A DNA stretch of 40,302 nt from a virus (Duplodnaviria > Heunggongvirae > Uroviricota > Caudoviricetes), in the IMG/VR virus record IMGVR_UViG_2654588006_000003. One strand, 5' to 3'. Both the position numbers and the translations under genes were made by a program. Shown here in pieces: positions 1 through 33,058 of this stretch. The stretch's first letter is position 1. Every line of letters begins with the position of its first letter. The notes under the pieces are model-generated. The model saw nothing but the letters and a program-made list of their open reading frames with translations. It was not told the DNA's origin and did no database searches.

Positions 1-19
1 CTATTTGATAAATATTAAA

Positions 20-1315
20 TTAATTTTTCATTGCTTCGTTATGGGGCATGGTTGGGGCAAACTCGCTTAACTGTGTATTTAACAAAGCTACCTGTGCATT
101 ATTGTTTTCAGACATCCATTTTCCGTATACCTGAAATACCATTTGCGCATCTGCATGGCCCATCTGGTTTGCTATAAATGCCGGGTTAGCACCAGCTGTC
201 AGCGACCAGCAGGCATAAGTATGTCTCGACTGATATGATTTTCGATGGCGGAGTCCGGCACGTTTTATCGCTGCGTCCCACATCTGCCTTATTGAGTCAA
301 CGGTAAAATGGTCACCATAATTTTTTACTCTCGCTGACACTTCAGGTTGAAAAACAAAGGTGCATTTTTGTTTTTCTGTTCTGCCATACTCTCTGAGGTG
401 AACATCAATGATATGCTCTTTGCTCAGTCTCGTTAATGTCATCTGACTCCGGAGAGCGTCGATTGCTGGCTTAATAAGATGAATGACCCGATTGGTTCCC
501 GCCTGTGTTTTTGGTACCGTGAAACGGTCTTTTGCTAAATTTCTCCTGATCATCATTGTTCCATTTTTCAGATCTATGTCCTCCCATCCAAGTGCACACA
601 GCTCACCAGGGCGAACTCCAGTATAAACAGAAACACACCATAAATTTTTTGCTTGCTGATTTCTGCACGCATCGATAAGACGGATAAATTCTTCCCGCGA
701 AAGAGGATCCGGAATGGTTCTTGATTCCTTTAATGGCGAGATCCCCTTAAACGGATTATCTGCCAGGTAACCGTTATCAACACCAAACTGGAACACGGCG
801 TTAAGATTTGTCATGTAATTATTTACAGTTACAGCCGATCCCCCTGGTTGTGTAACAATATAGTTACTTTTGGGGATCTGGTATCCAGTCAGTAACTCTT
901 TACGAACCTCCAGTAATTTTTCTTTATTAATCGATGAGGCAAGATTTTTTTCACCGATTATGCTCAGGATATTTTTGATGACGGCACGGTATGTGTTGAG
1001 TGATGTTTTGGCGACTTCAGTTTCTTTCAGTGCCAGAAATTTTTCAGCCAGTTCTTTTATGGTTAAATCTTGTCGGGCCTCACCAAATTTTTCCAGATTG
1101 CGTGAGGAGGGAAACTGTTTTGCATAGTCGAAAACACCAGTTTTTATTGCGTAACAAACAGAGGAGCGTAGTTCACCTGCAACGCGCCTGTTTTTTGCTG
1201 TGTCAGGAACCCCCAGATTTTCCCTGACTCTTACGTCTTTATAAACAAACCAGATACGTAATTTCCCTCCATGGTTTTCCACGCCTGTCGGATATTTCAT
1301 TTCAACTTCTCTCAT
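20..1315 (-). CDS. intQ: Phage integrase, tyrosine recombinase (431 aa)
   Basis: ORF track; C-terminal catalytic region with SRHTYA (H-x-x-R) and VYGKW (Tyr) motifs typical of tyrosine recombinases; sits at prophage end next to an excisionase-like gene. Symbol by analogy to K-12 Qin. Confidence 0.9.
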   Translation of the reverse strand: MREVEMKYPTGVENHGGKLRIWFVYKDVRVRENLGVPDTAKNRRVAGELRSSVCYAIKTGVFDYAKQFPSSRNLEKFGEARQDLTIKELAEKFLALKETEVAKTSLNTYRAVIKNILSIIGEKNLASSINKEKLLEVRKELLTGYQIPKSNYIVTQPGGSAVTVNNYMTNLNAVFQFGVDNGYLADNPFKGISPLKESRTIPDPLSREEFIRLIDACRNQQAKNLWCVSVYTGVRPGELCALGWEDIDLKNGTMMIRRNLAKDRFTVPKTQAGTNRVIHLIKPAIDALRSQMTLTRLSKEHIIDVHLREYGRTEKQKCTFVFQPEVSARVKNYGDHFTVDSIRQMWDAAIKRAGLRHRKSYQSRHTYACWSLTAGANPAFIANQMGHADAQMVFQVYGKWMSENNNAQVALLNTQLSEFAPTMPHNEAMKN

Positions 1316-1334
1316 TAGTTAGTGTGGCTTTTAG

Positions 1335-1586
1335 TCAAGTAAGATGACGTCTTGGTCTCGCTGATGCCTGGCGCTCAATCCAGCGATCAATTTCTTCCAG
1401 GTTGTAAAAGCATGGACTGTTATCCCATGGCATACCGTCATGAGCGACATGCTTATATTCCCTTCCTTCCATAAACGATTTTTCCCGGGCCTTTTTTAAC
1501 GTACCTTTTTTTATTCCTTTCAGCGCAATTAACTGCTCTTCGGATACCCATTTGCCGGGAGAGACAATCATGATTACTTCGCTCAT
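1335..1586 (-). CDS. Excisionase-like small DNA-binding protein
   Basis: 83-aa ORF immediately upstream of the integrase on the same strand; size and position typical of Xis. True start may be an internal Met (MIVSPGK). Confidence 0.55.
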   Translation of the reverse strand: MSEVIMIVSPGKWVSEEQLIALKGIKKGTLKKAREKSFMEGREYKHVAHDGMPWDNSPCFYNLEEIDRWIERQASARPRRHLT

Positions 1587-1658
1587 CGATTTCTTTATCT
1601 CTTACATCAGACGAGCGCCGGTTGCAGAATACCAGTCACAACCGGCGACAGTTGAACA

Positions 1659-4130
1659 TTAAGAATCAGCCTGACTCGGGATCAGTTTTTGCCAGATAAC
1701 TGAAACGTATTTTGCCTGGTAACGGGCGTCATCAAGTGCATTATGGCGCTCACCTTCGAATGGAATAGCCGTTCTGGCATCGAAGTCTATGGCTTTCCCC
1801 AGCTCAACGATTGTGCGTACATCGCGATCGTTGTAGTAACGCCACGGGCAGGGGATCCCCTGCCGTTCGTATGAACGGCGCAAAATCGTGTTGTCGAAGT
1901 TGGCTCCATTTCCCCAAACCTGAACAAAAAATTCACCGGAGTTTTCGTCGATAAATTCTCGCAATTGTAACAGTGCATCATCTAACGGGATTTCATCGGT
2001 CATAATGGCAGATTGCGCTTCGCGTGATTGCTTAAGCCACCATTTAATGGTGTCCCGATCAATGACTCCGCCAGCAGTTTCCAGATCGATAGTCTTACTA
2101 AATTCCGGTCCCATATCTCCGGTTTGCGGATCGAAAAATATTGCACCTATTGAGATGATCGGGGCATCAGGATTTTTTCCCATGGTTTCAAGGTCGATCA
2201 TTAGATGGTCACACGTCCTGCTGGTGGATGTGATTTCGTGATGACCGTTCACCTTAATTGGGTGATCTGCCGTCTCGCCAGTTTCATTATCGCTATTGTG
2301 ATGCTGATTGCCGCCAGTGTTCTCCTTGTGTGGATGTTCAGCGCCTTCCATTTCCTCCGGATCATCTTCCTGAACTTCAACCTGATACTCTTCATCGAAT
2401 GTTTCTTGGTATGTTGCGTCGCCCATCACCGCGCCACAATCAGGGCAGTTGCCGCCGCCGGTCTGACCGCAGGCGGTGCAGACTTTTTCCACTTCCTGTT
2501 GCGCTACTGGTTCAGGCTGTTTCGTTTCTGGCTCGTTTTGTAACGCATTTGGACTGTTTTGTTCCGCTTTTTGGTAGTTCCGTTCCGATTCATGCTGGTT
2601 CTGGTTCACAGAATCGCGGGTCTGGAGCCCCTTAACCCATTTCGGATCATTCGGGTCACTAATCCCTTCAACAAATTCACCACGTGATGCAGCAAGCAAC
2701 TTATCGGCGTCAGGCTGGCTGATATTGGCTGCCTGCATAATTTTGTTTACTTCGTCAGCGGTAACTTTTATCGGCTCTGGTTGTTCTGAATCTTCAGCGG
2801 TATCTACATTTTGCGGTAAGCCCGTGTATGTGCCATTTTTTCGGGCAAAATATTCTTCTTTTGTGATTTCAGTGGCGCCAGCAGCCAGTGCCTTATCCAG
2901 ACCAGAGAGTTTGTTTGCGCGACCGTATTTTTCTCCGTCCTTATCTGCGAAGAGGAAATAGAACGGCCCCTCACGCTCTACAGATGGTTCAGCTTCCGGC
3001 GCGGTTTCATTTTTTGGGATATCAGATACCTCAGTTTCCACTGCATCAGTTTGTGTTTCTGATGACTGGAGAACATCAACAGTGCCCAGGTCTGTTTCTT
3101 CATTCTCAAACACGCCCTTTGTCGTCAGGTATTCGCAGATATATTTGTTCAGTGCTACGGGATCTTTGTGAATGTCGATCGGACGCTCACGGACAAGGCC
3201 AAAAATAGTTTGGCGGTCGTAGCGAAGGGCATCAGGCTGTTTGCGCATTGATGCCGAGATACGCTTCCAGTCTTCGCGGTCGTTGTCGATAACTTCTTTT
3301 TTTGCCCAGCGATGGATGCTGCCGTCAATGTTTCCGGCATCCACATCACTAGGCCAGAGAGCGTAGGCCAGTTCGTCATCCAGTGTTTTCCATGTCTGCT
3401 TGTATTCGCGATGAATGGCAGCAATGACCGGGCTGATTTTTCCTGTTGAATTTTCAGTGTACTGTTGATTGGCTCTGGCGCGGGCGAGATCAACAACAGA
3501 CGTGTATTTTCCGGTTTCCTTGCGTTCACCTTCGCGACGTTTTTTCCAGATGCGCATCTCTGCCTGAATTTCGGGCCATTTAGCACCAGGAATACATTTA
3601 TGCTTAACCCACCCAATGGCGTGCAACTTAAGCTCCGGATACATGGCGTTAACTTCTGGCATTTTCATCAACGCTTCAACGATATGTCCGTCGAATGTTG
3701 CCATGTCTTCCTGCAACAATTCCTGTGCGCTAATAACCATATCAACGGTGATGTTTTCACATGTGTCGAACTTAACCATGACAGCGTTCTGTACTTCAGG
3801 GGCCAGCTTGTCAAAAGTGACGTTCATCGGATCGGATTCAGTCTCAACCGGGACAAAAGAAGCAGACTCCTCATCCCAGCGGTTTTCCTGCATATATTCA
3901 GCATCCCATGAATCGAGGGCAGGGCGGGGTATGCCAGGTTTATCCTCGCAGACAATAAATTTATAAGCGCAGTCCTGAGCAGCCGGATAATGTTCCAGGA
4001 ATTGCCAGTGAAATTTTGCTCGAGCACGGCGTTCGTCGCCAGCTTCAATGGCTGTGGCTACAGCCACAGCGCCTTCTTCCCTTGTTGCCAGTTCGTCAGG
4101 AATAGCGGCGCAAATAAAGACTTTACTCAT
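1659..4130 (-). CDS. ydfE: Exonuclease family protein, full-length ydfE-like, with C-terminal DnaQ/DEDDh 3'-5' exonuclease domain
   Basis: ORF track 1659..4166; start placed at internal ATG 4130 (MSKVFICAAIP) with upstream GAGG. C-terminus carries Exo I (MIDLETMG), Exo II (VWGNGANFDNT) and Exo III (HNALDDARYQAKY) motifs; central CxxC...CPDC zinc ribbon. N-terminus matches K-12 YdfE as recalled. Confidence 0.8.
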   Translation of the reverse strand: MSKVFICAAIPDELATREEGAVAVATAIEAGDERRARAKFHWQFLEHYPAAQDCAYKFIVCEDKPGIPRPALDSWDAEYMQENRWDEESASFVPVETESDPMNVTFDKLAPEVQNAVMVKFDTCENITVDMVISAQELLQEDMATFDGHIVEALMKMPEVNAMYPELKLHAIGWVKHKCIPGAKWPEIQAEMRIWKKRREGERKETGKYTSVVDLARARANQQYTENSTGKISPVIAAIHREYKQTWKTLDDELAYALWPSDVDAGNIDGSIHRWAKKEVIDNDREDWKRISASMRKQPDALRYDRQTIFGLVRERPIDIHKDPVALNKYICEYLTTKGVFENEETDLGTVDVLQSSETQTDAVETEVSDIPKNETAPEAEPSVEREGPFYFLFADKDGEKYGRANKLSGLDKALAAGATEITKEEYFARKNGTYTGLPQNVDTAEDSEQPEPIKVTADEVNKIMQAANISQPDADKLLAASRGEFVEGISDPNDPKWVKGLQTRDSVNQNQHESERNYQKAEQNSPNALQNEPETKQPEPVAQQEVEKVCTACGQTGGGNCPDCGAVMGDATYQETFDEEYQVEVQEDDPEEMEGAEHPHKENTGGNQHHNSDNETGETADHPIKVNGHHEITSTSRTCDHLMIDLETMGKNPDAPIISIGAIFFDPQTGDMGPEFSKTIDLETAGGVIDRDTIKWWLKQSREAQSAIMTDEIPLDDALLQLREFIDENSGEFFVQVWGNGANFDNTILRRSYERQGIPCPWRYYNDRDVRTIVELGKAIDFDARTAIPFEGERHNALDDARYQAKYVSVIWQKLIPSQADS

Positions 4131-4222
4131 TTGTTTTAACCTCATGACAGATTTAAGGATGAACAAATCCCTGCCATTGCTGGCATATAAGAATGAAACC
4201 GGATATTTATTACGGAACTGTT

Positions 4223-4414
4223 TTAAAGACCTGCCGGGATTTCGATATTATCCTGGTGAATAACTTTATCGACCGGGTAACAGTTACCGGGAATTTTCTG
4301 TTCGGTTGCTGCAGTCATACACTCCTGCATTGTCCTGTGAACACTGACTGCAATATCAACTGGCTCTCCGGAAACAAGAAAAACTGTCAGAACAAGCACA
4401 AATGCTGAATTCAT
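4223..4414 (-). CDS. ydfD: YdfD-like small protein (63 aa) with N-terminal hydrophobic segment
   Basis: Internal ATG of ORF 4223..4468; start overlaps dicB stop in an ATGA arrangement (translational coupling); sequence MNSAFVLVLTVFLVSGEP... matches YdfD as recalled. Confidence 0.7.
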   Translation of the reverse strand: MNSAFVLVLTVFLVSGEPVDIAVSVHRTMQECMTAATEQKIPGNCYPVDKVIHQDNIEIPAGL

Positions 4415-4599
4415 TGTGCACATCCTTTTGGCATCAGACGTAAACGAGCCAGCATTGAAACAATGCATATTTTATTTAATAGCTCCCGTTCTTGTTTTCT
4501 CTTGTTAATGGCATCTTCAGTAAATACTGGGTTACTGATAGTGACACCAATTTCAAAACAACCTTCAGACGTATTAACGTTTGGTAATAACGTTTTCAT
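4411..4599 (-). CDS. dicB: Cell division inhibitor DicB (62 aa)
   Basis: Translation MKTLLPNVNTSEGCFEIGVTISNPVFTEDAINKRKQERELLNKICIVSMLARLRLMPKGCAQ from internal ATG of ORF 4411..4704; located downstream of dicF as in the dicB operon. Confidence 0.9.
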   Translation of the reverse strand: MKTLLPNVNTSEGCFEIGVTISNPVFTEDAINKRKQERELLNKICIVSMLARLRLMPKGCAQ

Positions 4600-4773
4600 T
4601 ATCGCGTCCTCAACAATGAATTTTGTGATGCAGTGCCTGGTGCCTCCAGGTGACGTTAACCAGTTAACAATTAACGCCGGATACAGAGAATCCACCCATA
4701 ACACTGTTTTTGGTTTTAACTGTTCCGCGTGCGCTCAGCCGCATTCACCACATCACAAAATTCACTTTAAAAA

Positions 4774-4826
4774 GGGCGGCAGAGCAGTCACGGAGTAAAA
4801 CTGATACCGCCAAACGTCACCAGAAA
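4774..4826 (-). ncRNA. dicF: DicF small regulatory RNA (ftsZ-targeting antisense sRNA) with intrinsic terminator
   Basis: Minus-strand sequence UUUCUGGUGACGUUUGGCGGUAUCAGUUUUACUCCGUGACUGCUCUGCCGCCC followed by a U-run (plus 4769..4773); lies between ydfC and dicB. Confidence 0.9.
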
Positions 4827-5166
4827 ATTGATAACAGAGGGCGTTGCAGCGGGGTTGTCACTTAAGCGTATGGTCAACCTGACAACCCGGTGTCCTCAAC
4901 GGGGAAGGAATAACCCCGCCATACTTACCGCCGCGCCATTTCGCGGGTTGCCACAACCGGAAGCGCACGGTCGACGAAAATTTAACGACAGGCTATCTAT
5001 GAACCAGCTACCTCGCCGTGCGCTTTCGCGTTATGGTCTGACTTTTCAGGGAAATATCCTTTCAGTAAACTGTCAGTTCCGGATGCGCACCCGTGTCCGG
5101 CGCACGCACTCCACCTCACCCGTGGAGAACTCCTTAATTACTAACCTTAGCTTTGTTGATTAGCTA

Positions 5167-5385
5167 CTAACGCGGGTATGTAATCATTCTGGCAATGCTT
5201 AATGCCGCTGCTTTTTCCAGATTGGTGATATCCTGCTCCAGAGCGGACAGATTTTCAGCCTGCTTAGCCCTGGCTTCATTAGCCCATTTCAGATCCTGCG
5301 CTGCATTAATTTTCTGGCGCATCCACTCATAAAGTTCATCATCGGTATAGTCTGGCGCGATGATGACGGGTTCTCGTTTCTGCAT
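5167..5385 (-). CDS. ydfC: YdfC-like protein (72 aa), dicB operon
   Basis: ORF track; sequence and position between ydfB and dicF. Confidence 0.8.
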   Translation of the reverse strand: MQKREPVIIAPDYTDDELYEWMRQKINAAQDLKWANEARAKQAENLSALEQDITNLEKAAALSIARMITYPR

Positions 5386-5414
5386 ACTGATTCCTCGCGG
5401 TGCTGTTTCGCTTA

Positions 5415-5543
5415 TCAGCCGTTAGATTTTGCCGAACTGGAAAGCGCCTGTTTAAACTCACTGAAGCTGAGAGCTTCTTCGCCTTCGGCAAGGCCTTCGA
5501 AGTATTCTTCGTAAGCCTTTTCCATGATTGTGTCGAAATCCAT
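5415..5543 (-). CDS. ydfB: YdfB-like small protein (42 aa)
   Basis: Hand translation of minus strand from ATG at 5543: MDFDTIMEKAYEEYFEGLAEGEEALSFSEFKQALSSSAKSNG; below the ORF-track size cut-off; start abuts ydfA stop (TGATATG). Confidence 0.75.
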   Translation of the reverse strand: MDFDTIMEKAYEEYFEGLAEGEEALSFSEFKQALSSSAKSNG

Positions 5544-5544
5544 A

Positions 5545-5700
5545 TCACTCACCTGAGTTTCTTTCCAGCCAGCGACGGGCACCATTTTCGGTTTTAAACG
5601 TTTTGCTTTTGGTATACGTCATTGCGGTGAACGTGCCGTCCTGGTTTGGAAACACGCCGTACACCAGAGATTCGTTGTTGCCAAGATCGATAGTATCCAT
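5545..5700 (-). CDS. ydfA: YdfA-like small protein (51 aa), first gene of dicB operon
   Basis: Internal ATG at 5700 of ORF 5545..5778 giving MDTIDLGNNESLVYGVFPNQDGTFTAMTYTKSKTFKTENGARRWLERNSGE. Confidence 0.75.
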   Translation of the reverse strand: MDTIDLGNNESLVYGVFPNQDGTFTAMTYTKSKTFKTENGARRWLERNSGE

Positions 5701-5866
5701 GCTGACCTCATTTCCCCTTAACGCTGGGGTAGCGGAACTGTTTGCTGAGAACACCGTGCGGTGTGTTGATGCAAACAAGATTAGCCATGACTAACATATC
5801 GGTCAAGTGATTTTGTATGCTATAGCTAACATAATTGATGTGGTAAAAGATAACTCATTGATGATG
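5701..5866 (-). promoter_or_regulatory. Putative dicB-operon promoter/operator region between dicA and ydfA
   Basis: Intergenic; contains tagctaac and atgactaaca motifs that recur in the dicA-dicC intergenic palindromes, consistent with DicA operator half-sites. No promoter boxes assigned. Confidence 0.4.
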
Positions 5867-6274
5867 TTATCTTTTATTTGTCCGCTGACGGGCTTTTAGT
5901 AATTCTTCAAAGAGTTTATTGAAGTTTTTTACTCGAGCTCGCATTTCGGCGAGCTGGGTATCCTGTTCTGATTCTGGCAGTGCATTAAACAGCTCAAGGA
6001 GCTCTAGTTCTTTGGGGGATAAGGCAACTGGCTTCTCAACAGGTGGTGTTGGTTGCTTGTCTTCATCGCCAAATAGAATCCATGTTGGTGAGCATTGCAA
6101 TACTTTGCTGAGGGCAAAAAGGTTCTTCCCTGTAGGTTCACTATCACCCCGTTCCCATTGTGATACAGACACATGGGAGATTTTCAGGGCTTTAGCAAGA
6201 GACCTTTGGGTGTGTTTGAGGTTTTTCCGACGATACCTGATGCGTTCGCCGATAGTTAAATTTTTTGTTTCCAT
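5867..6274 (-). CDS. dicA: DicA, cI-like HTH repressor of the dicB operon (135 aa)
   Basis: ORF track; N-terminal HTH (QRSLAKALKISHVSVSQWERG); divergent from dicC. Confidence 0.9.
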   Translation of the reverse strand: METKNLTIGERIRYRRKNLKHTQRSLAKALKISHVSVSQWERGDSEPTGKNLFALSKVLQCSPTWILFGDEDKQPTPPVEKPVALSPKELELLELFNALPESEQDTQLAEMRARVKNFNKLFEELLKARQRTNKR

Positions 6275-6357
6275 AGTTAGCTAATGCTAAATCGTATTGA
6301 CTATGTTTTTGTTAACATCTATCTTGTTAGTTATGACTAACAATAAAGGTGTTTTAA
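6275..6357. promoter_or_regulatory. Divergent dicA/dicC promoter-operator region
   Basis: 83-bp intergenic region with palindromes ttagctaa (6277..6284) and tgttagttatgactaaca (6325..6342). Confidence 0.55.
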
Positions 6358-6588
6358 ATGCTTAAAACTGACGCTCTTTTGTATTTCGGTTCAAAAACAA
6401 AACTTGCACAAGCAGCAGGTATTCGTTTGGCTTCGCTTTATAGCTGGAAAGGGGATTTAGTTCCCGAAGGTCGCGCGATGCGTCTACAGGAGGCATCTGG
6501 CGGGGAGCTTCAGTATGATCCCAAAGTTTATGATGAATATCGTAAGACGAAGCGGGCGGGGCGGTTGAACAATGAAAATCACTCCTGA
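6358..6588 (+). CDS. dicC: DicC, Cro-like regulator (76 aa)
   Basis: ORF track; divergent from dicA; sequence recognised as DicC. Confidence 0.9.
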   Translation: MLKTDALLYFGSKTKLAQAAGIRLASLYSWKGDLVPEGRAMRLQEASGGELQYDPKVYDEYRKTKRAGRLNNENHS

Positions 6589-7093
6589 ACAGGCTCGTGA
6601 GGCTCTGGATGCCTGGATATGTCGACCAGGAATGACACAGGAGCAGGCGACGATATTAATCACTGAAGCATTCTGGGCTTTGAAAGAGCGCCCGAACATC
6701 GATGTTCAGCGTGTCACATATGAAGGTGGCGCGATTGATCAGCGAGCGCTTGGCGTTAATCGAGTGAAGATATTTGAACGCTGGAAGGCTATCGACACCA
6801 GGGATAAGCGTGAAAAGTTCACGGCGCTAGTGCCTGCAATTATGGAGGCTATCCGGATTAATGATTTCAGGTTGTATCGTGAAATTACTGACGGAAAAAG
6901 CATCACGTGCATGATCGCCGGGTTAAACAAAGAATATGGCGATGTGGTGGAGTCCGGACTGCTTTTTGCTGATCCTGCCGTAGTGGATCGTGAAACTGAC
7001 GAACTTATAGAAAAAGCAATTGCTTTCAAACTTGCGTATCGACAGCAATACCAACAAAAAGCTGGATGGAATTATGAGCCTTCTTTTTGCTGA
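6572..7093 (+). CDS. YdaT-like protein (173 aa), probable regulator/toxin-family protein in CII-equivalent position
   Basis: ORF overlapping dicC stop by 17 nt; position downstream of the Cro-like gene mirrors ydaS-ydaT of Rac-type prophages. Family assignment from memory. Confidence 0.55.
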   Translation: MKITPEQAREALDAWICRPGMTQEQATILITEAFWALKERPNIDVQRVTYEGGAIDQRALGVNRVKIFERWKAIDTRDKREKFTALVPAIMEAIRINDFRLYREITDGKSITCMIAGLNKEYGDVVESGLLFADPAVVDRETDELIEKAIAFKLAYRQQYQQKAGWNYEPSFC

Positions 7094-8039
7094 ACGCCCA
7101 CTGGTTATAAACACGCAGCTGGCAATGAAAATTGGCTTAAACGAAGCCATTGTTTTGCAACAACTGCACTACTGGTTGAGAGATACCAACTCCGGCATGG
7201 AATGTGATGGTGTTCGCTGGATTTATAACACAACGGAACAATGGCTGGAACAGTTCCCATTCTGGTCAGAGTCAACGTTAAAGCGCGCGTTTGCAAGTCT
7301 GAAAACGCTGGGGCTTTTGCGTTGTGAAAAGCTCAATAAATCAAAGCGCGATATGACCAATTTCTACACGATCAACTATGGGAGCGAGCTTTTAGATGGT
7401 GGCAAATTGAGCGAATCCATCGGTTCAAAATGCGCCGCTCCATCAGGTCAAAATGACACGATGGAAGAGGTCAAAATGAAACGCTCCATTGGTTCAAAAC
7501 GACCCAATGTCATCGGGTCAAAATGGCCTGATGATCTTACAGAGAATACAACAGAGATTACTACAGAGAATAAAAACACTTTTCGTCCGGAAGCTTCGCA
7601 ACCGGACCCGCAGACGACTGAACAGGATTTTTTAACCCGGAACTCCGACGCGGTTGTGTTTAGTGCGAAAAAACGCCAGTGGGGTAGCAGGGAGGATTTG
7701 GCGTGTGCGCAGTGGATCTGGGGGCGGATCGTGGGTCTCTACGAACAGGCAGCCAGTGATGATGGCGAGATCATGCGACCAAAAGAGCCTAACTGGACTG
7801 CCTGGGCCAATGACGTGCGCACAATGCGGATGCTGGATGGCAGAAGCCACAGACAAATTTGCGAAATGTTTGGTCGGGTTCAGCGAGATCCATTCTGGGT
7901 AAAAAACATCATGAGCCCGTCAAAGCTCCGCGAAAAATGGGACGAACTGGTCATCCGCCTGGGACGTTCACCTGTACAGCGTTGTGTTAATCATATTTCT
8001 GAACCGGATACAGAAATTCCGCCTGGTTTCAGAGGATAA
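7074..8039 (+). CDS. Putative phage replication initiation protein (N-terminal wHTH, C-terminal DnaT-like region)
   Basis: ORF track 7020..8039; start placed at ATG 7074 (MSLLFAERPL) with upstream GGATGGA; contains embedded iteron-like repeats and an AT-rich tract, as in lambda O/ori. Confidence 0.6.
   Translation: MSLLFAERPLVINTQLAMKIGLNEAIVLQQLHYWLRDTNSGMECDGVRWIYNTTEQWLEQFPFWSESTLKRAFASLKTLGLLRCEKLNKSKRDMTNFYTINYGSELLDGGKLSESIGSKCAAPSGQNDTMEEVKMKRSIGSKRPNVIGSKWPDDLTENTTEITTENKNTFRPEASQPDPQTTEQDFLTRNSDAVVFSAKKRQWGSREDLACAQWIWGRIVGLYEQAASDDGEIMRPKEPNWTAWANDVRTMRMLDGRSHRQICEMFGRVQRDPFWVKNIMSPSKLREKWDELVIRLGRSPVQRCVNHISEPDTEIPPGFRG
7415..7600 (+). repeat. Iteron-like direct repeats plus AT-rich tract (candidate replication origin) inside the replication gene
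   Basis: Five copies of (a/c/t)ggt(t)caaaa(t/c)g at about 7421, 7445, 7468, 7490 and 7515 (23-24 bp spacing), then AT-rich repeats acagagaata/acagagatta (7540..7575). Confidence 0.5.
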
Positions 8040-8079
8040 GTGTTGATTTCAGGTCATGAGGTAATTTTAAGGGGGACTT

Positions 8080-8502
8080 GTGGCAAAAGTTTTTACACAA
8101 GAAGAGCGGGAAAAAATTAAATGGCAGGTGGTGGAACTCGTGCGCCAGAGCGGCCGTGAGACGTTACGGCAACTGGAAGCTAAAACAGGTGCGACTAGAT
8201 ATCTGATGAGCGTTCTTGCCAGAGAGCTGGTAGCCAGTGGCGATGTATACAACTCCGGCTACGGGTTATTCCCCTCTGAACAGGCGCGTAAGGACTGGCA
8301 AAACGCCCGCAAAAAACTCTCGAGGGCAAAGGTGAAGAAACCTGCTGTGGTTGATCCGGACCTTATCTGGTCATCACCTGACGGAGAAATACGTCGCTAC
8401 GACAGTCGCCTAAACATAATCTGTCGCGAGTGCCGGAAGAGCGAAGTTATGCAGCGCATACTGGCTTTCTATCAGGGTAATTTTCAGGACGTGGCGCAGT
8501 GA
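8080..8502 (+). CDS. Hypothetical protein (140 aa)
   Basis: GTG start preceded by AAGGGGGA; stop overlaps the GTG start of the downstream methyltransferase (GTGA); contains CRECRK motif. No family recognised. Confidence 0.5.
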   Translation: MAKVFTQEEREKIKWQVVELVRQSGRETLRQLEAKTGATRYLMSVLARELVASGDVYNSGYGLFPSEQARKDWQNARKKLSRAKVKKPAVVDPDLIWSSPDGEIRRYDSRLNIICRECRKSEVMQRILAFYQGNFQDVAQ

Positions 8503-8945
8503 GTGCACCGGCAACCATTCTTGATATGTGCTGTGGCAGCCGCATGTTCTGGTTCGATAAGTCTGACGAACGGGCGATATTCAGCGATATCAGAAAAGAA
8601 GGATACACATTACGCAATGGGAGACGCTTGATTATCAGCCCTGACATTATCGCAGATTTTCGTGCATTATCATTTGCAGACGCATCTTTTTCGATGGTTG
8701 TATTAGACCCTCCGCATCTTGAGAGTGTTGGTGATAACGCCTGGATGGGAAAGAAATATGGACGGCTGAATAAAGATGCCTGGCGTGATGATTCGCGACA
8801 GAGATTTAAAGAAGCCTTTCGGGTGTTGAGGCCGCACGGCGTTCTGATTTTTTAATGGAATGAAACGCAAATACCGGTAAGCCAGATTCTGGCACTGACA
8901 GACAGAAAACCTGTTATCTGTCAACGAACAGGGAAAAAACGATAA
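8499..8945 (+). pseudogene. DNA methyltransferase (amino-MTase motifs) interrupted by in-frame TAA at 8853..8855
   Basis: SAM-binding-like motif ILDMCCGS and catalytic-like VLDPPH in the 118-aa ORF 8499..8855; the same frame stays open for 29 more codons after the TAA (WNETQIPVSQILALTDRKPVICQRTGKKR) to 8945. Confidence 0.5.
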
Positions 8946-10007
8946 AACCCACTGGATTATTTTTATGAAAGAGGCATCCAGTGAGTAGATTCGTAAGGCT
9001 ACAGATACGTATATCTGAATAATTAAATTCAGTTCTGTAAATAAAATTTAATCCTTAACCGGATGGATTTCTGCACCCTCAGAACATCAGGAGGCCGCCC
9101 GAAAGGGCGGTAGTGAAATGCGAAAGTTCAAAATTATTATTGAAACGGGAATAGCTGGTGGAGATTTTGAGGATGTATTCGAAGTGGACGATGACGCAAC
9201 ACCTGAGGAAATTCATGACGGAGCATAAGAAATTTTCTTTAACTACTGCAATTACTCATACCACGAAATAAAAGACGATGAGGAAGAACAAAGTGGCTGA
9301 TTTTTGTTCAGCTAAATATAACATCAGTTTTGAAGAGCGGGATGAACTATTAATGGACTATGGTGAGTTACGCGGTGGAAGTGCTGCTGATGTCGAATCC
9401 TAGCGTGATGACTATGAAGCGGGAAAAACTCCGGTCGAAGCATATTGTGATGAGTGGGGCGATGAATGAGCGAGATTAATTATCAGGAAGGGCATGAAAC
9501 GGCGGGGCAAGCAAAACCAGTGGCATGGCGATATCGCTACGTGAAAAAAGGCGTTACGGACTTTCAGGGGAAGTAGTGGTCTGGTGACTGGAAATATGTA
9601 CCGAAAAAAGAGGATTGTAACGACAGGCCGAACTATCAAATTCAGGCCTTATTCACTGCCTCACCAGTCCCAGTTACATCAGAAGAACTGGTTAAAGCTG
9701 TGCACTTTTATGAACAACTAAAACGCGAAAATCCACCAACATCCGGCAACTAGATTAATGGATTAACTATGTCGGTTAAACGACCAGCCAACTGAAAAAG
9801 CGGAAACCTGATTACAGGTTGCCAGATAAGGCAATGAGCTACCTGGCGCGGAACGGACTGATAAGTATGGGGAATGTTTTACGATGAACCTTTAGACTAA
9901 AGAGTTTGTAACGCTATGTAAGTGATTTTTTCTGGTTTAGATATTTATATGTCCGGCCAAATTGAGGTGTGTTTAAATGTAATTGCACATTGATTGTAGG
10001 AGGAATA

Positions 10008-10187
10008 ATGAAAAACGCATTGCAGTTTTTGTTTGTTGCGTTCTGGTTGTTCGCATCATGTATGCCCATCATCTTCACAGCAAGGTATATGGAAAAAGTT
10101 GATGTTTTGATATTAATATTTGGATATATAAATGCCCTTTTTTTAGGGGTGTTCATGGCGGTCATGTGCATTGAATACTGGCGGTAA
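10008..10187 (+). CDS. Small hydrophobic (2-TM-like) protein, 59 aa
   Basis: Internal ATG of ORF 9969..10187 preceded by TAGGAGG; hydrophobic stretches FLFVAFWLFASCMPIIF and ILIFGYINALFLGVFMAVM; AT-rich context. Confidence 0.35.
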   Translation: MKNALQFLFVAFWLFASCMPIIFTARYMEKVDVLILIFGYINALFLGVFMAVMCIEYWR

Positions 10188-10521
10188 ATACAGCGAACTC
10201 CATTGGTTTAGTTGGATATTTACTGTGCTGGACAAAAACGGTTTGCGGGGAAATCTTAGTTAAGTAGAATGACTGCGGGTGCTTGAGGCTATCTGCCTCG
10301 GGCATGGACACCAACGGCAGATAGAGAAAAGCCCCAGTTAACATTACGCGTCCTGCAAGACGCTTAACATTAATCTGAGGCCAATTTCATGCTAGACACA
10401 TGTAGGTTAGCCTCTTACGTGCCGAAAGGCACGGAGAAGCAGGCTATTGTTAACACCAAGCTGTAATGTCCCCTTTGAACCATTCTAAAATGTCCCCAGA
10501 CAATTCTCTGGGGGATTTTTC

Positions 10522-11004
10522 ATGATCAAAGAGACTGTTACGATGAGTCATAAGGAACTCCACCGACTTCAGATTATTCAGGAACAAGCTGCGGCACGCA
10601 TTGGCATTTCTATTCGGCAGGTTAAACGTCTGGTGCAACGGTATAGAAATGAAGGGCCTTCTGGTCTGGTTTCCCACCGACGTGGAAAGCGTCCTAATAA
10701 TTCCTTTTCTACTGAATTCAGAGCAACAGTAATTTCACTCCTCAAAGGCCGTTACGCTGATTTTGGACCTACGTTTGCGTGCGAAAAATTGCGCGAGATA
10801 CACGGTTTATCTTTATCCGTTGAAACTCTCAGAAAGTGGATGATAGAAGAGGGGTTATGGCGTGAACGCCGTCGTAAAATTGCCCGTATATATCAACGCC
10901 GCATGCGACGACCATCTTACGGTGAACTGATCCAGATTGATGGCTCACCTCATGACTGGTTTGAAAATCGAGGCCCCCAGATGTACACTGATCGTTTTCA
11001 TTGA
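10522..11004 (+). CDS. Transposase N-terminal part (HTH domain), frame 1
   Basis: ORF track; HTH-like AARIGISIRQVKRLVQRY; ends shortly after IQIDGSPHDWFENRGP. Confidence 0.7.
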   Translation: MIKETVTMSHKELHRLQIIQEQAAARIGISIRQVKRLVQRYRNEGPSGLVSHRRGKRPNNSFSTEFRATVISLLKGRYADFGPTFACEKLREIHGLSLSVETLRKWMIEEGLWRERRRKIARIYQRRMRRPSYGELIQIDGSPHDWFENRGPQMYTDRFH

Positions 11005-11836
11005 TGATGCCACCAGTGCGTTGATGGCGTTGCGTTTTGTGCCTGCTGAAACAACCCGGGCTTACATGGAAACCCTCCGGGGTTACCTTAATGATCATGG
11101 CGTACCGCTCGCTCTCTACTCTGATAGACACAGTATATTCAGGGTAAATAACCCAGAGCGGGAAGGTGAGCTGACCCAGTTCACTCGTGCGATAAAGACA
11201 CTGGGCATCGAGCCAATCCATGCCAACAGCCCGCAGGCAAAAGGGCGGGTAGAGCGCGCCAATCAGACACTACAGGACAGGCTGGTCAAAGAAATGCGGC
11301 TTCAGAATATCAGTGATATTGAAACAGCAAATGCATGGTTGCCGACCTTTATTGAAGCCTATAACAACCGGTTCGCTACGTCGCCTCGTACTACTGATAA
11401 TGCTCATCTTGATGTGCACCATTCTGAAGAGGAACTGGGTTATATCTTCAGCCTACAGGCGAAGCGCGTTCTGTCTAAAAATCTCACTTTCCAGTACAAA
11501 AGCAGTGCGTTTCAGGTACGCAGTGAGGGCCGGGGATATCGACTTAGGCATTCGGTTGTTACTGTATGCGAGAACTTTGACGGTGAAATTAACGTTCTGT
11601 ATGACGGGAAAGCGCTGGGCTGGGAAAAGTATGTTGATGGCCCGGAGCCTATACCACTGGATGATGAAAAGAGTGTCCATGAACGAGTGGATAATGCCCG
11701 TATTGATTTACGCTCAAAATACTATGTTAAACCTAAAGCTGACCATCCCTGGCTTACGCGCCGAACGCAAAGTCATCAGCAAGTTAAGCCCCCGAAGTTA
11801 CCTAAAAAGAAGCCTGATCCCGATAAAAAAGATTGA
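10937..11836 (+). CDS. Transposase catalytic part (rve/DDE core and C-terminal domain), frame 2
   Basis: ORF track; motifs CTLIVFIDDATS, LYSDRHSIF and SPQAKGRVERANQTL typical of retroviral-integrase-like DDE transposases; continuity with the upstream ORF needs a 1-nt frame change in the C5 run at 10974..10978. Confidence 0.7.
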   Translation: MMAHLMTGLKIEAPRCTLIVFIDDATSALMALRFVPAETTRAYMETLRGYLNDHGVPLALYSDRHSIFRVNNPEREGELTQFTRAIKTLGIEPIHANSPQAKGRVERANQTLQDRLVKEMRLQNISDIETANAWLPTFIEAYNNRFATSPRTTDNAHLDVHHSEEELGYIFSLQAKRVLSKNLTFQYKSSAFQVRSEGRGYRLRHSVVTVCENFDGEINVLYDGKALGWEKYVDGPEPIPLDDEKSVHERVDNARIDLRSKYYVKPKADHPWLTRRTQSHQQVKPPKLPKKKPDPDKKD

Positions 11837-12272
11837 AACCAAGATCGATTCGGTTGAGTGCATATCCATTCATAGGGTAGATTCTTAAGTCGCGTTTCTG
11901 GTGTTCATTTTCGGGTGGTTTGTTACTTGTTTTACCGGGGATATGCCAGAAACGCGCTGAGTCAGTCTGGGCGGTGCGCGTAATGAGGCGTTATGGTAAA
12001 TAGCCTATGCTAATGTCCGCTAAGAGCAAGAAGCGGAAGTTGGCAGTTTTGTGGACTGTCCCCACAAAAGTGACTACAGAAATAGTTGCAATTCATAATT
12101 GATCATGGGTTGTCAGTTAAACTCGTGGCGATTTAAATAGACTAATTGGGAGTGCGTCCATTACTTATATCTTGTAATGTTAACTATCAGAAATGATACA
12201 AAGATAATATGTCTTTAAAGAAAAGGCTGATGGCGAAAAGTGGCCCGATGAGGGCCACAATACGGCTGTCAC

Positions 12273-13735: not shown

Positions 13736-13891
13736 ATGAAGCAGCAAAAGGCGATGTTAATCGCCCTGATCGTCATCTGTTTAACCGTCATAGTGACGGC
13801 ACTGGTAACGAGGAAAGACCTCTGCGAGGTACGAATCCGAACCGGCCAGACGGAGGTCGCTGTCTTCACAGCTTACGAACCTGAGGAGTAA
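13736..13891 (+). CDS. hokD: HokD (RelF) Hok-family membrane toxin (51 aa)
   Basis: Hand translation MKQQKAMLIALIVICLTVIVTALVTRKDLCEVRIRTGQTEVAVFTAYEPEE; below ORF-track cut-off. Confidence 0.85.
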   Translation: MKQQKAMLIALIVICLTVIVTALVTRKDLCEVRIRTGQTEVAVFTAYEPEE

Positions 13892-14107: not shown

Positions 14108-14359
14108 ATGATGAACATCGAAGAACTGCGTAAAATTTTTTGTGAAGATGGCCTCTATGCTGTGTGCGTTGAAAATGGAAATCTTGTTAGTCATTACCGC
14201 ATTATGTGTTTGCGAAAGAATGGGGCTGCGTTAATTAATTTTGTGGATGCTCGGGTCACGGACGGATTTATCTTGCGCGAAGGTGAGTTTGTCACTTCAT
14301 TACAGGCATTGAAAGAGATCGGAATAAAAGCTGGCTTTTCTGCTTTTTCAGGAGAATAA
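14108..14359 (+). CDS. rem: Rem (83 aa), unknown function
   Basis: ORF track; size and position between hokD and ydfU. Confidence 0.75.
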   Translation: MMNIEELRKIFCEDGLYAVCVENGNLVSHYRIMCLRKNGAALINFVDARVTDGFILREGEFVTSLQALKEIGIKAGFSAFSGE

Positions 14360-14425: not shown

Positions 14426-14704
14426 ATGGCACGCAACGCAAAATATTACAATTCTGATAATTCGCCCGTTCTTGCCTGCACGCACGGGCGGTATTCTCAC
14501 GCATTCAAGTCTGAATGGTTCCAGCACCCTCCATGCACTGCAGAACAGGCCGAATGGCTGATTCATTCTTACCGCAGGCGCGGGTTCGAGGTTAAGAAAG
14601 CTCTCAGTCTCGACTATCGGCACTGGATAATCTCTGTCAGGCTGCCTTATTCAGAACGCCCACCACGTGCGTCCCGCACTTTCCAGCAACGGATCTGGAG
14701 GTAA
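14426..14704 (+). CDS. Hypothetical protein (92 aa)
   Basis: ORF with GGAG 9 nt upstream of ATG; ends 1 nt before the proposed GTG start of ydfU; protein-like composition. Confidence 0.4.
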   Translation: MARNAKYYNSDNSPVLACTHGRYSHAFKSEWFQHPPCTAEQAEWLIHSYRRRGFEVKKALSLDYRHWIISVRLPYSERPPRASRTFQQRIWR

Positions 14705-14705
14705 C

Positions 14706-15755
14706 GTGCGGGTATTACTTAGACCTGTTCTGGTGCCTGAGCTTGGGCTGGTGGTCCTTAAGCCGGGCCGTGAATCCATACAGATATTTCATAATCCTCG
14801 AGTGCTGGTGGAACCGGAACCAAAAAGCATGCGTAATCTGCCATCCGGAGTCGTTCCTGCCGTTCGCCAGCCGCTGGCGGAAGACAAAACATTGCTGCCG
14901 TTTTTTAGTAACGAACGGGTGATTCGTGCTGCTGGCGGCGTTGGCGCATTGTCCGACTGGCTATTACGTCATGTTACATCCTGCCAGTGGCCTAATGGCG
15001 ATTACCATCACACTGAAACAGTCATTCACCGTTATGGTACCGGCGCAATGGTGTTGTGCTGGCACTGCGACAACCAACTGCGTGACCAGACATCGGAATC
15101 ACTGGAGCTGCTTGCTCAACAAAATCTGACAGCATGGGTGATTGACGTCATCCGTCACGCAATAAGCGGTACGCAGGAGCGGGAATTATCTTTGGCTGAA
15201 TTATCCTGGTGGGCGGTCTGCAATCAGGTGGTGGATGCACTACCTGAGGCTGTATCGCGTCGTTCGCTGGGATTACCAGCGGAAAAAATCTGCTCGGTGT
15301 ACCGCGAAAGCGACATCGTACCGGGAGAGCAGACCGCCACCAGCATATTGAAACAACGCACAAAAAATCTTGCACCGTTGCCTTACGCCCACCAGCAACA
15401 AAAATCACCACAGGAAAAGACGGTGGTAAGCATCACCGTTGATCCAGAGTCTCCGGAATCTTTCATGAAGCTGCCTAAACGTCGCCGCTGGGTTAAGGAG
15501 AAATACACACGTTGGGTTAAGACACAGCCGTGTGCTTGCTGCGGTATGCCAGCCGACGATCCGCATCATCTGATTGGTCACGGGCAGGGCGGAATGGGAA
15601 CAAAAGCACATGATCTCTTTGTGTTGCCTTTGTGCAGAAAGCATCACAACGAGCTGCATACGGATACAGTGGCATTTGAAGATAAGTATGGCTCCCAACT
15701 GGAGCTGATATTTCGTTTTATCGATCGCGCGCTGGCAATTGGCGTACTGGCGTAA
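14706..15755 (+). CDS. ydfU: YdfU-like DUF968 protein (349 aa)
   Basis: ORF track 14667..15755; in-frame GTG at 14706 gives the 349-aa length recalled for YdfU; C-terminal Cys/His-rich region (CACCGMPADDPHHLIGHG...CRKHHNELH). Confidence 0.7.
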   Translation: MRVLLRPVLVPELGLVVLKPGRESIQIFHNPRVLVEPEPKSMRNLPSGVVPAVRQPLAEDKTLLPFFSNERVIRAAGGVGALSDWLLRHVTSCQWPNGDYHHTETVIHRYGTGAMVLCWHCDNQLRDQTSESLELLAQQNLTAWVIDVIRHAISGTQERELSLAELSWWAVCNQVVDALPEAVSRRSLGLPAEKICSVYRESDIVPGEQTATSILKQRTKNLAPLPYAHQQQKSPQEKTVVSITVDPESPESFMKLPKRRRWVKEKYTRWVKTQPCACCGMPADDPHHLIGHGQGGMGTKAHDLFVLPLCRKHHNELHTDTVAFEDKYGSQLELIFRFIDRALAIGVLA

Positions 15756-17155: not shown

Positions 17156-17455
17156 AAAAATTCCTTAATACTGATAACTTGGCGCACTATACACACGTTC
17201 CTGAAGAAAGCTATAGTTTTTTGATGGGGTTGAAGATGGCTGGATGTCTAAAATAAACATTGCTTCATATGTTCAACTATGCGTTAATGATTGCGTCGGT
17301 TTGAAGAACAGACGATATACGAAGTAGTTTACTAAAGCAGTTCTCATTTCAGGTGTTATTCACTTATTCCTTCTTTGAGTCTCTCCAATTAAGTACGAAG
17401 TCGTTTCTGTTATGCAAACCATTTATGCCGAAAGGCTCAAGTTAAGGAATGTAGA

Positions 17456-17671
17456 ATGTCAAATAAAATGACTGGTTTAGTAAAATGGTTTAACGCTGAT
17501 AAAGGTTTCGGCTTTATTTCTCCTGTTGATGGTAGTAAAGATGTGTTTGTGCATTTTTCTGCGATTCAGAATGATAATTATCGAACCTTATTTGAAGGTC
17601 AAAAGGTTACCTTCTCTATAGAGAGTGGTGCTAAAGGTCCTGCAGCAGCAAATGTCATCATTACTGATTAA
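17456..17671 (+). CDS. cspB: Cold-shock protein CspB (71 aa)
   Basis: ORF track; [21 protein letters not shown]... with RNP motifs; long AT-rich 5' leader. Confidence 0.9.
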
Positions 17672-17952
17672 AATTCATCGCTCGTCTGTATACGATAACG
17701 AAGAAGGCTGATGCCTGAGTAGAGATACGGACAGAGTAGTGAATATTGGATCTCTTTAATAAAAAGTAAGGAGGTCCAATACATGAAACAATGGCTAGCA
17801 TATTTGGCAAAATCTTAATCAGGAAAAGTATGCTAACCATTGTGGTGAAGTGCAGGTTTGCTGCATGAATAGTTTTACAGCAGAAGCTAACTGCTGGCAT
17901 GGCAAAACAAAGTGCGTAAGTGGATGACTCCCACAAAAAGCACCACAATCTC

Positions 17953-19980: not shown

Positions 19981-20342
19981 GGTAATATTAAATCGGAACA
20001 TTTACATCGCGGAATGTAAAATTTAAATAAAAAGGACTCTTCCATGAGCCAAAATTCCTGAAATCTTAAGGGTAAGATAAAAGGTCTTAATCAGAATGAC
20101 ACGTTTTATTAATAAATAAAGCTATTCTTTCATTGCTGTGTTTTTCTTTACAAAAGTAATCCTTGCTATGGGTGGTTAATCATGCGTTAATGGTGTTCTG
20201 GTTTGTTACAAATTTATCTGAAGCAGTCATTGTTATAATTTTATTATTTGTACCTCTTGAGATTTCCTTGTTGGTTTTTCTCTCTGATATTTTTTTTCGG
20301 ACCATTCTGCCCAAGGGCTAATTTCTTCAAAAGGTAATAATT

Positions 20343-20555
20343 ATGTCTAACAAAATGACTGGTTTAGTGAAATGGTTTAACCCTGAAAAAGGTTTTGGTT
20401 TCATCACGCCGAAAGATGGCAGCAAAGATGTGTTTGTCCATTTCTCAGCAATTCAGAGCAACGATTTCAAAACATTAACTGAGAATCAGGAAGTTGAATT
20501 TGGTATTGAGAACGGACCTAAAGGTCCTGCCGCTGTTCATGTAGTGGCGCTTTGA
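20343..20555 (+). CDS. cspI: Cold-shock protein CspI (70 aa)
   Basis: ORF track; CSD signature [23 protein letters not shown]... Confidence 0.9.
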
Positions 20556-20589
20556 GGTAGACAATATTACAAACCATATTCACTTTAGA

Positions 20590-22641: not shown

Positions 22642-23187
22642 ATGGAAGTCAACAAAAAGCAGCTGGCTGACATTTTCGGTGCGAGTATCCGTACCATTCA
22701 GAACTGGCAGGAACAGGGAATGCCCGTTCTGCGAGGCGGTGGCAAGGGTAATGAGGTGCTTTATGACTCTGCCGCCGTTATAAGATGGTATGCCGAAAGG
22801 GATGCTGAAATTGAGAACGAAAAGCTGCGCCGGGAAGTTGAAGAACTGCGGCAGGCCAGCGAGGCAGATCTCCAGCCAGGGACTATTGAGTACGAACGCC
22901 ATCGACTTACGCGTGCGCAGGCCGACGCACAGGAACTGAAGAATGCCAGAGACTCCGCTGAAGTGGTGGAAACCGCATTCTGTACTTTCGTGCTGTCGCG
23001 GATCGCAGGTGAAATTGCCAGTATTCTCGACGGGATCCCCCTGTCGGTGCAGCGGCGTTTTCCGGAACTGGAAAACCGACATGTTGATTTCCTGAAACGG
23101 GATATCATCAAAGCCATGAACAAAGCAGCCGCGCTGGATGAACTGATACCGGGGTTGCTGAGTGAATATATCGAACAGTCAGGTTAA
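22642..23187 (+). CDS. nohA: Terminase small subunit, lambda Nu1-type (181 aa)
   Basis: ORF track; MEVNKKQLADIFGASIRTIQNWQEQGMPVLRGGGKGNEVLYDSAAV... near-identical to lambda Nu1 as recalled; overlaps A by 26 nt as in lambda. Confidence 0.95.
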   Translation: MEVNKKQLADIFGASIRTIQNWQEQGMPVLRGGGKGNEVLYDSAAVIRWYAERDAEIENEKLRREVEELRQASEADLQPGTIEYERHRLTRAQADAQELKNARDSAEVVETAFCTFVLSRIAGEIASILDGIPLSVQRRFPELENRHVDFLKRDIIKAMNKAAALDELIPGLLSEYIEQSG

Positions 23188-27472: not shown

Positions 27473-27476
27473 TCCC

Positions 27477-28787: not shown

Positions 28788-28847
28788 TGCAAAACATTTT
28801 ATGTGAAACCGCCTGCGGGCGGTTTTGTCGTTTATGGAGCGTGAGGA

Positions 28848-32327: not shown

Positions 32328-32394
32328 ATTTTATAACCCATATACGGGCGCCAGAAATGGCGCCTTTTTTATTGCAGAAAAGCGAGAGGTAATT

Positions 32395-32994: not shown

Positions 32995-33019
32995 TTAGCC
33001 AGGTAACACAGTGTTATGA

Positions 33020-33049: not shown

Positions 33050-33058
33050 GGGGTGAAT

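Follow-up and report, generated by a model that had tools for sequence, protein, structure and literature searches.

A 40,302-nucleotide stretch of viral DNA (IMG/VR record IMGVR_UViG_2654588006_000003; "the window" denotes this whole stretch) holds a cell-division control module at positions 4223–6588, flanked by an exonuclease and an integrase gene that both look intact. This raises the question of whether the locus is a less decayed form of the Qin prophage of Escherichia coli K-12, perhaps one that could still excise. Our best explanation is that the window is a Qin-type lambdoid prophage in ydfJ, adjoining rspB, with element and site matching those of K-12 Qin; we put its probability at about 0.8, a figure that covers identity, regulation, excision and the state of this copy jointly. 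The form seen here is the ordinary, widespread E. coli form of Qin, and K-12 is the damaged exception. The finding is already known, and the size diversity of Qin among strains has been published previously.

The division-control module is that of K-12 Qin

The region 4223–6588 is the prophage immunity region together with the beginning of the leftward early operon. The leftward dicBF operon, on the minus strand throughout, opens with ydfA (5545–5700; Pfam DUF1391), ydfB (5415–5543) and ydfC (5167–5385), which together span 5167–5700 and are so annotated in identical relatives. The dicF small RNA (4774–4825) lies downstream of these, followed by dicB (4411–4599), encoding a cell-division inhibitor (Pfam DicB, E = 1.9e-40), and ydfD (4223–4414), encoding a small lysis protein (Pfam DUF1482). 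DicF matches Rfam RF00039 over the full model (1–52) and scores 76.7 bits, where the gathering score is 48; its terminator, a GGCGG...CCGCC stem with a T run after it, appears as the terminal hairpin in the computed fold. Upstream of the operon, dicA (5867–6274, minus strand) encodes a CI-like repressor of 135 aa with Pfam HTH_3 as its only domain, and dicC (6358–6588), the sole plus-strand gene of the module and divergent from dicA, encodes a Cro-like regulator (Pfam P22_Cro).

Alignment of window positions 3364–6851 with Qin of K-12 MG1655 gave 2 mismatches in 3488 nt, one at 5018 in the non-coding interval between dicF and ydfC and the other, synonymous, at 6107 in dicA. All 7 module proteins (DicA, DicC, YdfA, YdfB, YdfC, DicB and YdfD) are completely identical to their K-12 counterparts, as is the DicF RNA. 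The sequence features of a Qin-type dicBF locus were all found: DicF, the gene set on one strand, and the dicA/dicC pair with its operators. The sequence-only reading had described a complete dicA/dicC–ydfABC–dicF–dicB–ydfD module, and every element is where it had been placed, with Pfam, Rfam and K-12 identity in agreement. More broadly, K-12 Qin (b1544–b1579) occupies the same site between ydfJ and rspB with identical att core sequences; the two elements have their flanks in common and are 99.9% identical in every shared segment. K-12 Qin lacks window positions 6852–11651 (replication/nin-like genes) and most of 23171–36217 (terminase large subunit and tail genes).

A predicted DicA-controlled early operon

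The dicBp promoter region (5777–5832, minus strand) is identical to that of K-12 and contains DicA operator-like palindromes as well as TTGACC and GCTAAT hexamers recognised by eye; the dicA–dicC intergenic control region (6277–6340) contains two TTAG-N6-CTAA palindromes. This pattern occurs only 3 times in the 40 kb (at 5781, 6277 and 6327), always flanking dicA, with the dicBp site at 5781–5794. Beyond the module but part of its control circuit is rem (14108–14359, plus strand), encoding an antirepressor of DicA identical to K-12 Rem. In K-12, dicBp is repressed by DicA, Rem is the DicA antirepressor, and cells filament upon DicA loss or Rem expression (bioRxiv 10.1101/2023.04.14.536235). 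From the sequence identity to K-12 we infer the same regulatory circuit here, and filamentation on DicA loss or Rem expression would be expected likewise. The earlier placement of the module under a DicA/DicC switch holds, the control region being identical to that of K-12.

We propose that DicA would bind the palindromic operators on either side of dicA and hold dicBp and dicC off, with DicC acting in a Cro-like manner and Rem antagonising DicA. Relief of DicA, which has been shown in K-12, would allow dicBp to drive ydfA–ydfB–ydfC–dicF–dicB–ydfD, whereupon DicB with MinC would block division and YdfD would be lytic. Transcription may continue past ydfD on the same strand into the exonuclease gene, xis and int, as in the lambda pL operon. 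We saw no convincing terminator before these genes, so derepression would supply Xis and Int as well; a crude consensus scan of the minus strand from ydfD to int returned no strong terminator-like site, which is weak evidence for terminator absence because the scan also overlooked dicBp and the dicF terminator. To reach int, transcripts from dicBp would have to cross the dicF terminator.

The layout is like that of the lambda pL operon (N ... exo/bet/gam, kil, xis, int, with CI/Cro), a comparison based on the gene arrangement here and on established knowledge of lambda. In both, two operator regions flank the repressor gene, the Cro-like gene is divergent, and the leftward early operon includes an inhibitor of host division and a nuclease and ends with xis and int. 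Unlike the lambda repressor, DicA is 135 aa long and has no S24 peptidase domain, so relief would come via the antirepressor Rem and not through RecA-stimulated self-cleavage. The nuclease here is also of the DEDD type, not lambda Exo or RecE-type, and no N-like antiterminator or N homologue was identified.

The unbroken integration arm is the common state

Downstream of ydfD lie three genes on the minus strand. The exonuclease gene (1659–4130; 823 aa) corresponds, in unbroken form, to the ydfE pseudogene of K-12; its product has a C-terminal 3'-5' exonuclease domain of the DEDD type (Pfam Rv2179c-like, profile 2–177 of 177, E = 2.5e-67), and the protein is identical to that annotated in L001 and PhiR42_1. 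The excisionase gene xis (1335–1586; 83 aa; DUF1233 family, PF06806, E = 1.6e-31), not mentioned in the sequence-only reading, encodes a protein identical to those of EcE.CRE.COL and PhiR42_1. The IntQ-type tyrosine integrase (20–1300) has 426 aa, the length of the annotated proteins in relatives, and Pfam Arm-DNA-bind_2 and Phage_integrase domains, the former covering residues 9–72 of the 431-aa ORF. Its catalytic residues R230, K264, R359, H382 and Y392 agree with the consensus across 93 diverse homologues, and position 356 is Tyr, the subfamily consensus (71 of 94 sequences); the catalytic set, the Tyr nucleophile, the arm-binding domain and the full length expected of a tyrosine recombinase are therefore all there. 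Both flanking genes had been called full length, and open reading frames, complete domains and the catalytic residues bear this out; int and xis are both intact.

In K-12 the same arm is broken, as the sequence-only reading had stated for ydfE and the integrase: the annotation gives ydfE as a pseudogene, a 706-bp IS2E remnant and intQ as a pseudogene, and blastn agrees, showing that K-12 lacks window positions 1180–3363 and has the IS2 remnant in their place. This single lesion cost 568 exonuclease codons, so that ydfE retains only the first 255, as well as the whole of xis and the first 40 int codons. K-12 Qin fails to excise, for which the authors blame the inactive intQ (PMC3105296). Of 5426 complete E. 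coli genomes, 2285 have a contiguous int–xis–exonuclease arm and 342 have the K-12 lesion; the intact arm, also present in the viable phage Tritos, is thus nothing special. The left arm here is the ancestral, common and unbroken state, and that of K-12 is a derived, IS2-associated deletion.

Attachment sites and the integrase substitution R154G

At the boundary between prophage and ydfJ the window contains an 11-bp attR core, TTATGGATTTC (39017–39027). The attL core that pairs with it falls outside the window, 18 bp to the left of position 1, and was seen only in relatives that differ by no more than a few bases from window positions 1–12000. The core was defined by comparing attL (from L001), attR (from the window), attP (from the Tritos and PhiR42_1 records) and attB, all four of which have it in common; the attB site, which is the restored ydfJ junction, contains GAATTTATGGATTTCCAGTTATATTCG, and the attP junction contains GTGAATTATGGATTTCAAGAGTCATGCG. 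The host gene ydfJ is represented by its 3' part (39019–40302, plus strand), the 5' end having been split off by the prophage (PMC6379469), and 2007 of 5426 genomes have the attB site unoccupied and ydfJ intact. Recombination at the 11-bp core would rebuild an intact ydfJ. We considered the attP-type junction of PhiR42_1 as proof of excision and rejected it: the ends of that record repeat at 99.6%, not 100%, and the junction may therefore stem from a tandem prophage array.

The sequence-only reading had allowed for integrase changes not obvious by eye, and one is present although the catalytic residues are intact: a C replaces T at nt 841, which gives R154G. The exact 71-mer around nt 841 was found in 2 of 2978 genomes, residue 154 being Arg in ~2976 of the 2978 E. 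coli copies; the two nearest subfamilies likewise have Arg, within a GRS or GRA motif. Arg154 is kept in Int of K-12, of phage PhiR42_1, of the ydfJ prophages of strains EH41 and EcE.CRE.COL, and of Tritos; residue 154 is the sole difference from Int of EcE.CRE.COL and PhiR42_1, and Tritos Int has four further substitutions. R154G could impair binding to core DNA. The near-uniqueness of the change and the conservation of Arg154 among close relatives thus raise the prospect that the element is grounded, with R154G disabling the integrase, or with int and xis never expressed, so that this copy is no more mobile than K-12 Qin and its intact look is cosmetic; because the head genes have already been lost, selection on Int would also be relaxed. 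However, position 154 is non-catalytic and varies across the wider family (L, I, R, V, C, Y), and the catalytic residues, the arm-binding domain and Xis are all intact. We consider such grounding unlikely, though a serious contender, and in our preferred explanation, a Qin-type prophage with an unbroken arm, excision by this copy is plausible.

Strain 600029 has the 71-mer around nt 841, but in a different, more degraded Qin variant. The idea that R154 compensates for a missing Lys at family position 157 was dropped, since the association is weak (8/22 versus 14/72).

A more speculative proposal is that the element acts as an excisable, non-transmissible switch, in which derepression from DicA (by Rem, urea or heat) would both block division and excise the element, or else that R154G is a lineage-specific grounding mutation marking early domestication; we hold this to be improbable. 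Were the switch real, excision would restore the MFS transporter gene ydfJ. A switch of this kind would resemble the 'active lysogeny' described at other loci. The proposal draws on the retention of int, xis and attR and on an operon that apparently couples DicB and DicF to Xis and Int.

Loss of head and tail genes

Comparison by blastn with EH41, PhiR42_1 and EcE.CRE.COL, all of which retain the region, located the junction of a ~9.1-kb deletion at 25154–25172. The deletion runs from the portal gene into most of the tape-measure gene and leaves gpW codon 30 joined in frame with the tape-measure C-terminal part (fusion ORF 25084–26448). Missing are the genes for portal, protease/scaffold, decoration protein, major capsid protein, FI, FII, Z, U, V, G and T, together with the tape-measure N-terminal part. 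In EcE.CRE.COL the tape-measure region carries an IS3. The replication/nin (early right) region of the window contains an ISNCY transposase remnant and two pseudogenes, which are common to relatives, and no intact hok gene was found near a sok-type RNA match at 10277–10448. The description of this copy as less decayed is therefore apt for the left arm, which is unbroken, and fails for the element as a whole, with its private ~9.1-kb deletion, ISNCY remnant and pseudogenes. The strain-specific points are limited to the head/tail deletion and Int R154G.

Might the element even so work fully as a temperate phage that can be induced and makes virions, like Tritos or Ev081? Viable phages do have the same int–xis–exo–ydfD–dicB–dicF–ydfCBA arm, and this copy retains lysis, terminase, tail tip and fibre genes. 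Yet the complete head and tail gene set of a virion-forming lambdoid phage was not found: ~9.1 kb is absent relative to EH41, PhiR42_1 and EcE.CRE.COL, leaving the in-frame gpW::H fusion, and the remnant and pseudogenes of the early right region also speak against it. Judged by gene content, virion production by this copy is excluded because these head and tail genes are deleted, and the sequence would refute a functional phage unless the deletion were an assembly error; we give the idea almost no credence. Such an error would be an assembly collapse, the true prophage being complete like EH41 or PhiR42_1, and the absence of the junction from all 5426 complete E. coli genomes and the merely short microhomology at the breakpoints could be taken in its favour. 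Against this, the ~8 bp common to the flanks are too little for repeat-driven collapse, and a clean, in-frame junction is what a genuine deletion by illegitimate recombination would leave; a collapse thus appears very unlikely. We therefore retain the explanation of a Qin-type prophage from which head and tail genes have been lost.

Discussion

PhiR42_1 (PV340562, host ECOR13) is 99.75% identical over window positions 1–25172, with only 3 mismatches in 1–9000, and has the same DicA/DicC immunity region, ISNCY remnant and pseudogenes; searching the literature for PhiR42 and ECOR13 turned up no paper describing this phage. Tritos, prophage 3 of the AIEC strain LF82 (OV696610) and a relative of Ev081 (mEp460_ev081), has the int–xis–exonuclease–ydfD–dicB–dicF–ydfC–ydfB–ydfA arm and the attP region at 98.9% identity (window 1–5738 and 36885–39027), and it produces virions and plaques (PMC9928086). 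Its immunity region differs, with another CI/Cro pair and a Rha-family gene, and it has the complete head and tail module that is absent here.

A 2016 paper reported no matches to DicB or DicF in ~2,000 phage genomes (PMC5069750), whereas the phage collection searched here contains dozens. These results give useful background to studies of DicB and DicF and have little significance otherwise. The Qin prophage of the textbooks, that of K-12, is a derived, IS2-damaged copy, and the normal seat of the dicBF module is a pL-like operon in a widespread lambdoid family that integrates in ydfJ and has some viable members.

The division-control module is complete and nearly identical to that of K-12

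We called the module genes from the ORF list, an Rfam scan and the gene annotation of genomes that match the window exactly here, and all of these agreed that the Qin-type prophage carries the complete dicA/dicC-ydfABC-dicF-dicB-ydfD module at 4223–6588, exactly where the sequence-only reading had placed it. The minus strand holds the ORFs ydfD (4223–4414, Pfam DUF1482), dicB (4411–4599, Pfam DicB), ydfC (5167–5385), ydfB (5415–5543), ydfA (5545–5700, Pfam DUF1391) and dicA (5867–6274, 135 aa, Pfam HTH_3 only), together with dicF (4774–4825; Rfam RF00039, 76.7 bits against a gathering score of 48), whose terminator hairpin is seen in both the sequence and the fold; dicC (6358–6588, Pfam P22_Cro) is an ORF on the plus strand. 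By blastn, window 3364–6851 differs from the Qin prophage of K-12 MG1655 at 2 of 3488 bases, one non-coding between dicF and ydfC and the other a synonymous change in dicA, and all seven module proteins and dicF have the K-12 sequences. The 40-kb window has exactly three copies of the operator-like palindrome TTAG-N6-CTAA, each adjoining dicA.

The exonuclease-xis-int arm is open where K-12 is lesioned

Downstream of the module, on the same minus strand, lie an open 823-aa exonuclease gene (1659–4130) whose product has a complete Rv2179c-like DEDD 3'-5' exonuclease domain at its C terminus, an open 83-aa excisionase gene (xis, 1335–1586, DUF1233) and an open 426-aa tyrosine integrase gene with an arm-binding domain (int, 20–1300). 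In the K-12 record, ydfE and intQ are pseudogenes on either side of a 706-bp IS2E remnant, and blastn shows that K-12 lacks window 1180–3363, so that it has lost 568 exonuclease codons out of 823, the whole of xis and int codons 1–40. The IS2 damage to K-12 ydfE and integrase described in the sequence-only reading was borne out; the loss of xis, which had gone unmentioned, matters as much as that of int. Excision of K-12 Qin was not detected by Wang et al., who blamed the inactive intQ (PMC3105296). Several phage records name the exonuclease exodeoxyribonuclease VIII or RecE; its catalytic domain is that of a DEDD-type Rv2179c-like 3'-5' exoribonuclease, and DNA likeness to recE is confined to the middle of the gene, at about 2264–2711.

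We aligned the integrase with a solved tyrosine recombinase and 93 diverse homologues obtained by searching 1.84 billion representative proteins. Its reading frame contains no stops or frameshifts, and it retains R230, K264, R359, H382 and Y392, the nucleophile; residue 356 is Tyr, the subfamily consensus. This otherwise standard IntQ-type integrase has one less obvious difference, a private missense change: nt 841 is C in the window and T in K-12, EcE.CRE.COL, PhiR42_1 and Tritos, giving R154G. Residues L, I, R, V, C and Y all occur in column 154 across the wider family, and Arg154 is retained in the nearest subfamilies within a GRS or GRA motif. Among 2978 E. coli genomes having int, just 2 contain the exact 71-mer around this position. 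R154G is thus a rare, non-conservative substitution in the core-binding domain. The 71-mer carrier that was examined, strain 600029, has a different, heavily degraded Qin variant.

The intact arm is a common and already known form

Of 5426 complete E. coli genomes, 2285 have a contiguous int-xis-exonuclease arm, more than 2100 of them at an identity of at least 99%, and 342 have the K-12-type ydfE-IS2E-intQ junction; the two junction carriers listed are strains of laboratory type. The best genomes match window 1–12000 over its full length nearly base for base (coverage of at least 80% in 298), and a search of the phage collection gave 78 matching records. PhiR42_1 (PV340562) has 3 mismatches over window 1–9000 and the same DicA/DicC immunity region; Tritos, whose record annotates dicB and dicF, has the arm from int to ydfA in its entirety, at 98.9% identity. 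Related modules are present in HannyBb, mEp460_ev081 and many PPompW and Stx phages. Tritos, prophage 3 of LF82, forms plaques on MG1655 hsdR- and virions that electron microscopy has shown, and the infant-gut phage Ev081 is described as close to it (PMC9928086). Ramisetty and Sudhakari reported Qin at the ydfJ site in 48% of 638 strains, at 11 to 97 kb (PMC6379469), and Balasubramanian et al. found dicBF in many prophage contexts (PMC5069750). Given this spread and these published phages and surveys, the "less decayed" form is the normal one, and the finding is already known.

Head and tail genes are missing from this copy

About 9.1 kb present in EH41, PhiR42_1 and EcE.CRE.COL is missing from the window by blastn, from gpW codon 30 to the C-terminal part of the tape-measure gene (junction 25154–25172), leaving an in-frame gpW::tape-measure fusion ORF (25084–26448) at a short microhomology. 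The deleted genes are those for portal, protease/scaffold, decoration protein, major capsid protein, FI, FII, Z, U, V, G and T, and the prophage as it stands in the window cannot make particles. The junction was found in none of the 5426 complete E. coli genomes; a private deletion and an error of assembly are the two possible origins of the gap. The early right region contains two pseudogenes and, between the replication genes and ydfW, a frameshifted, C-terminally truncated ISNCY-family transposase remnant (10522–11836), all common to relatives; the remnant recurs in PhiR42_1, EH41 and EcE.CRE.COL, and the window has one additional C at 10974 relative to EcE.CRE.COL. The sequence-only interpretation is partly supported: its comparison with K-12 was right and excision is plausible, but the element is neither special nor generally less decayed.

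Directly upstream of the ISNCY remnant is a sok/CssrC Rfam match (10277–10448, plus strand, 104 bits); no intact hok ORF was found beside it, and it looks like an orphaned hok/sok piece separate from hokD (13736–13891). ydfU (14667–15755) is open in the window and K-12 and has an internal stop in the near-identical EcE.CRE.COL, where nt 15183 differs. Two cspA-type thermoregulator leaders (17295–17687 and 20197–20582, ahead of cspB and cspI), as well as an IS009 RNA-family match within tfaQ (36764–36962), fall in segments alignable to K-12 Qin. Segments 31889–32289 (the end of tail-tip J) and 34540–35768 (within the side tail fibre) are unaligned to EcE.CRE.COL and PhiR42_1 by megablast and are probably host-range variable regions adjoining the PinQ invertase.

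Attachment sites and proposed regulation

We compared the int-proximal attL of identical relatives, the ydfJ-proximal attR of the window, the attP-type junctions of Tritos and PhiR42_1 and the attB of uninterrupted ydfJ; all have a common 11-bp core, TTATGGATTTC. The attR core lies at 39017–39027, whereas the attL core, 18 bp left of window position 1, is not visible in the window and is known from the identical relatives. The ends of the PhiR42_1 record (1–783 versus 47888–48668) repeat at 99.6% rather than 100%, so its attP-type junction may come from tandem prophages instead of a circular assembly. The splitting of ydfJ by Qin is already published (PMC6379469). Of the 5426 complete genomes, 2007 contain the reconstructed attB uninterrupted and have ydfJ annotated as intact, which argues that precise excision would restore ydfJ. 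Judged from sequence, excision of the window's prophage is plausible.

In K-12, dicBp is repressed by DicA, DicA and DicC form a bistable switch, Rem is an antirepressor, and DicB and DicF block division (bioRxiv 10.1101/2023.04.14.536235). Because the sequences are identical, including that of Rem (14108–14359), we carry these steps over to the window. Gaps of 92, 72 and 34 nt lead from the operon into the exonuclease, xis and int, and a terminator scan, a weak test, found no convincing terminator between the operon and int. This layout suggests that the operon may continue through the exonuclease, xis and int, in which case derepression would, if transcription passes the dicF terminator, also supply Xis and Int, in the manner of the lambda pL operon.
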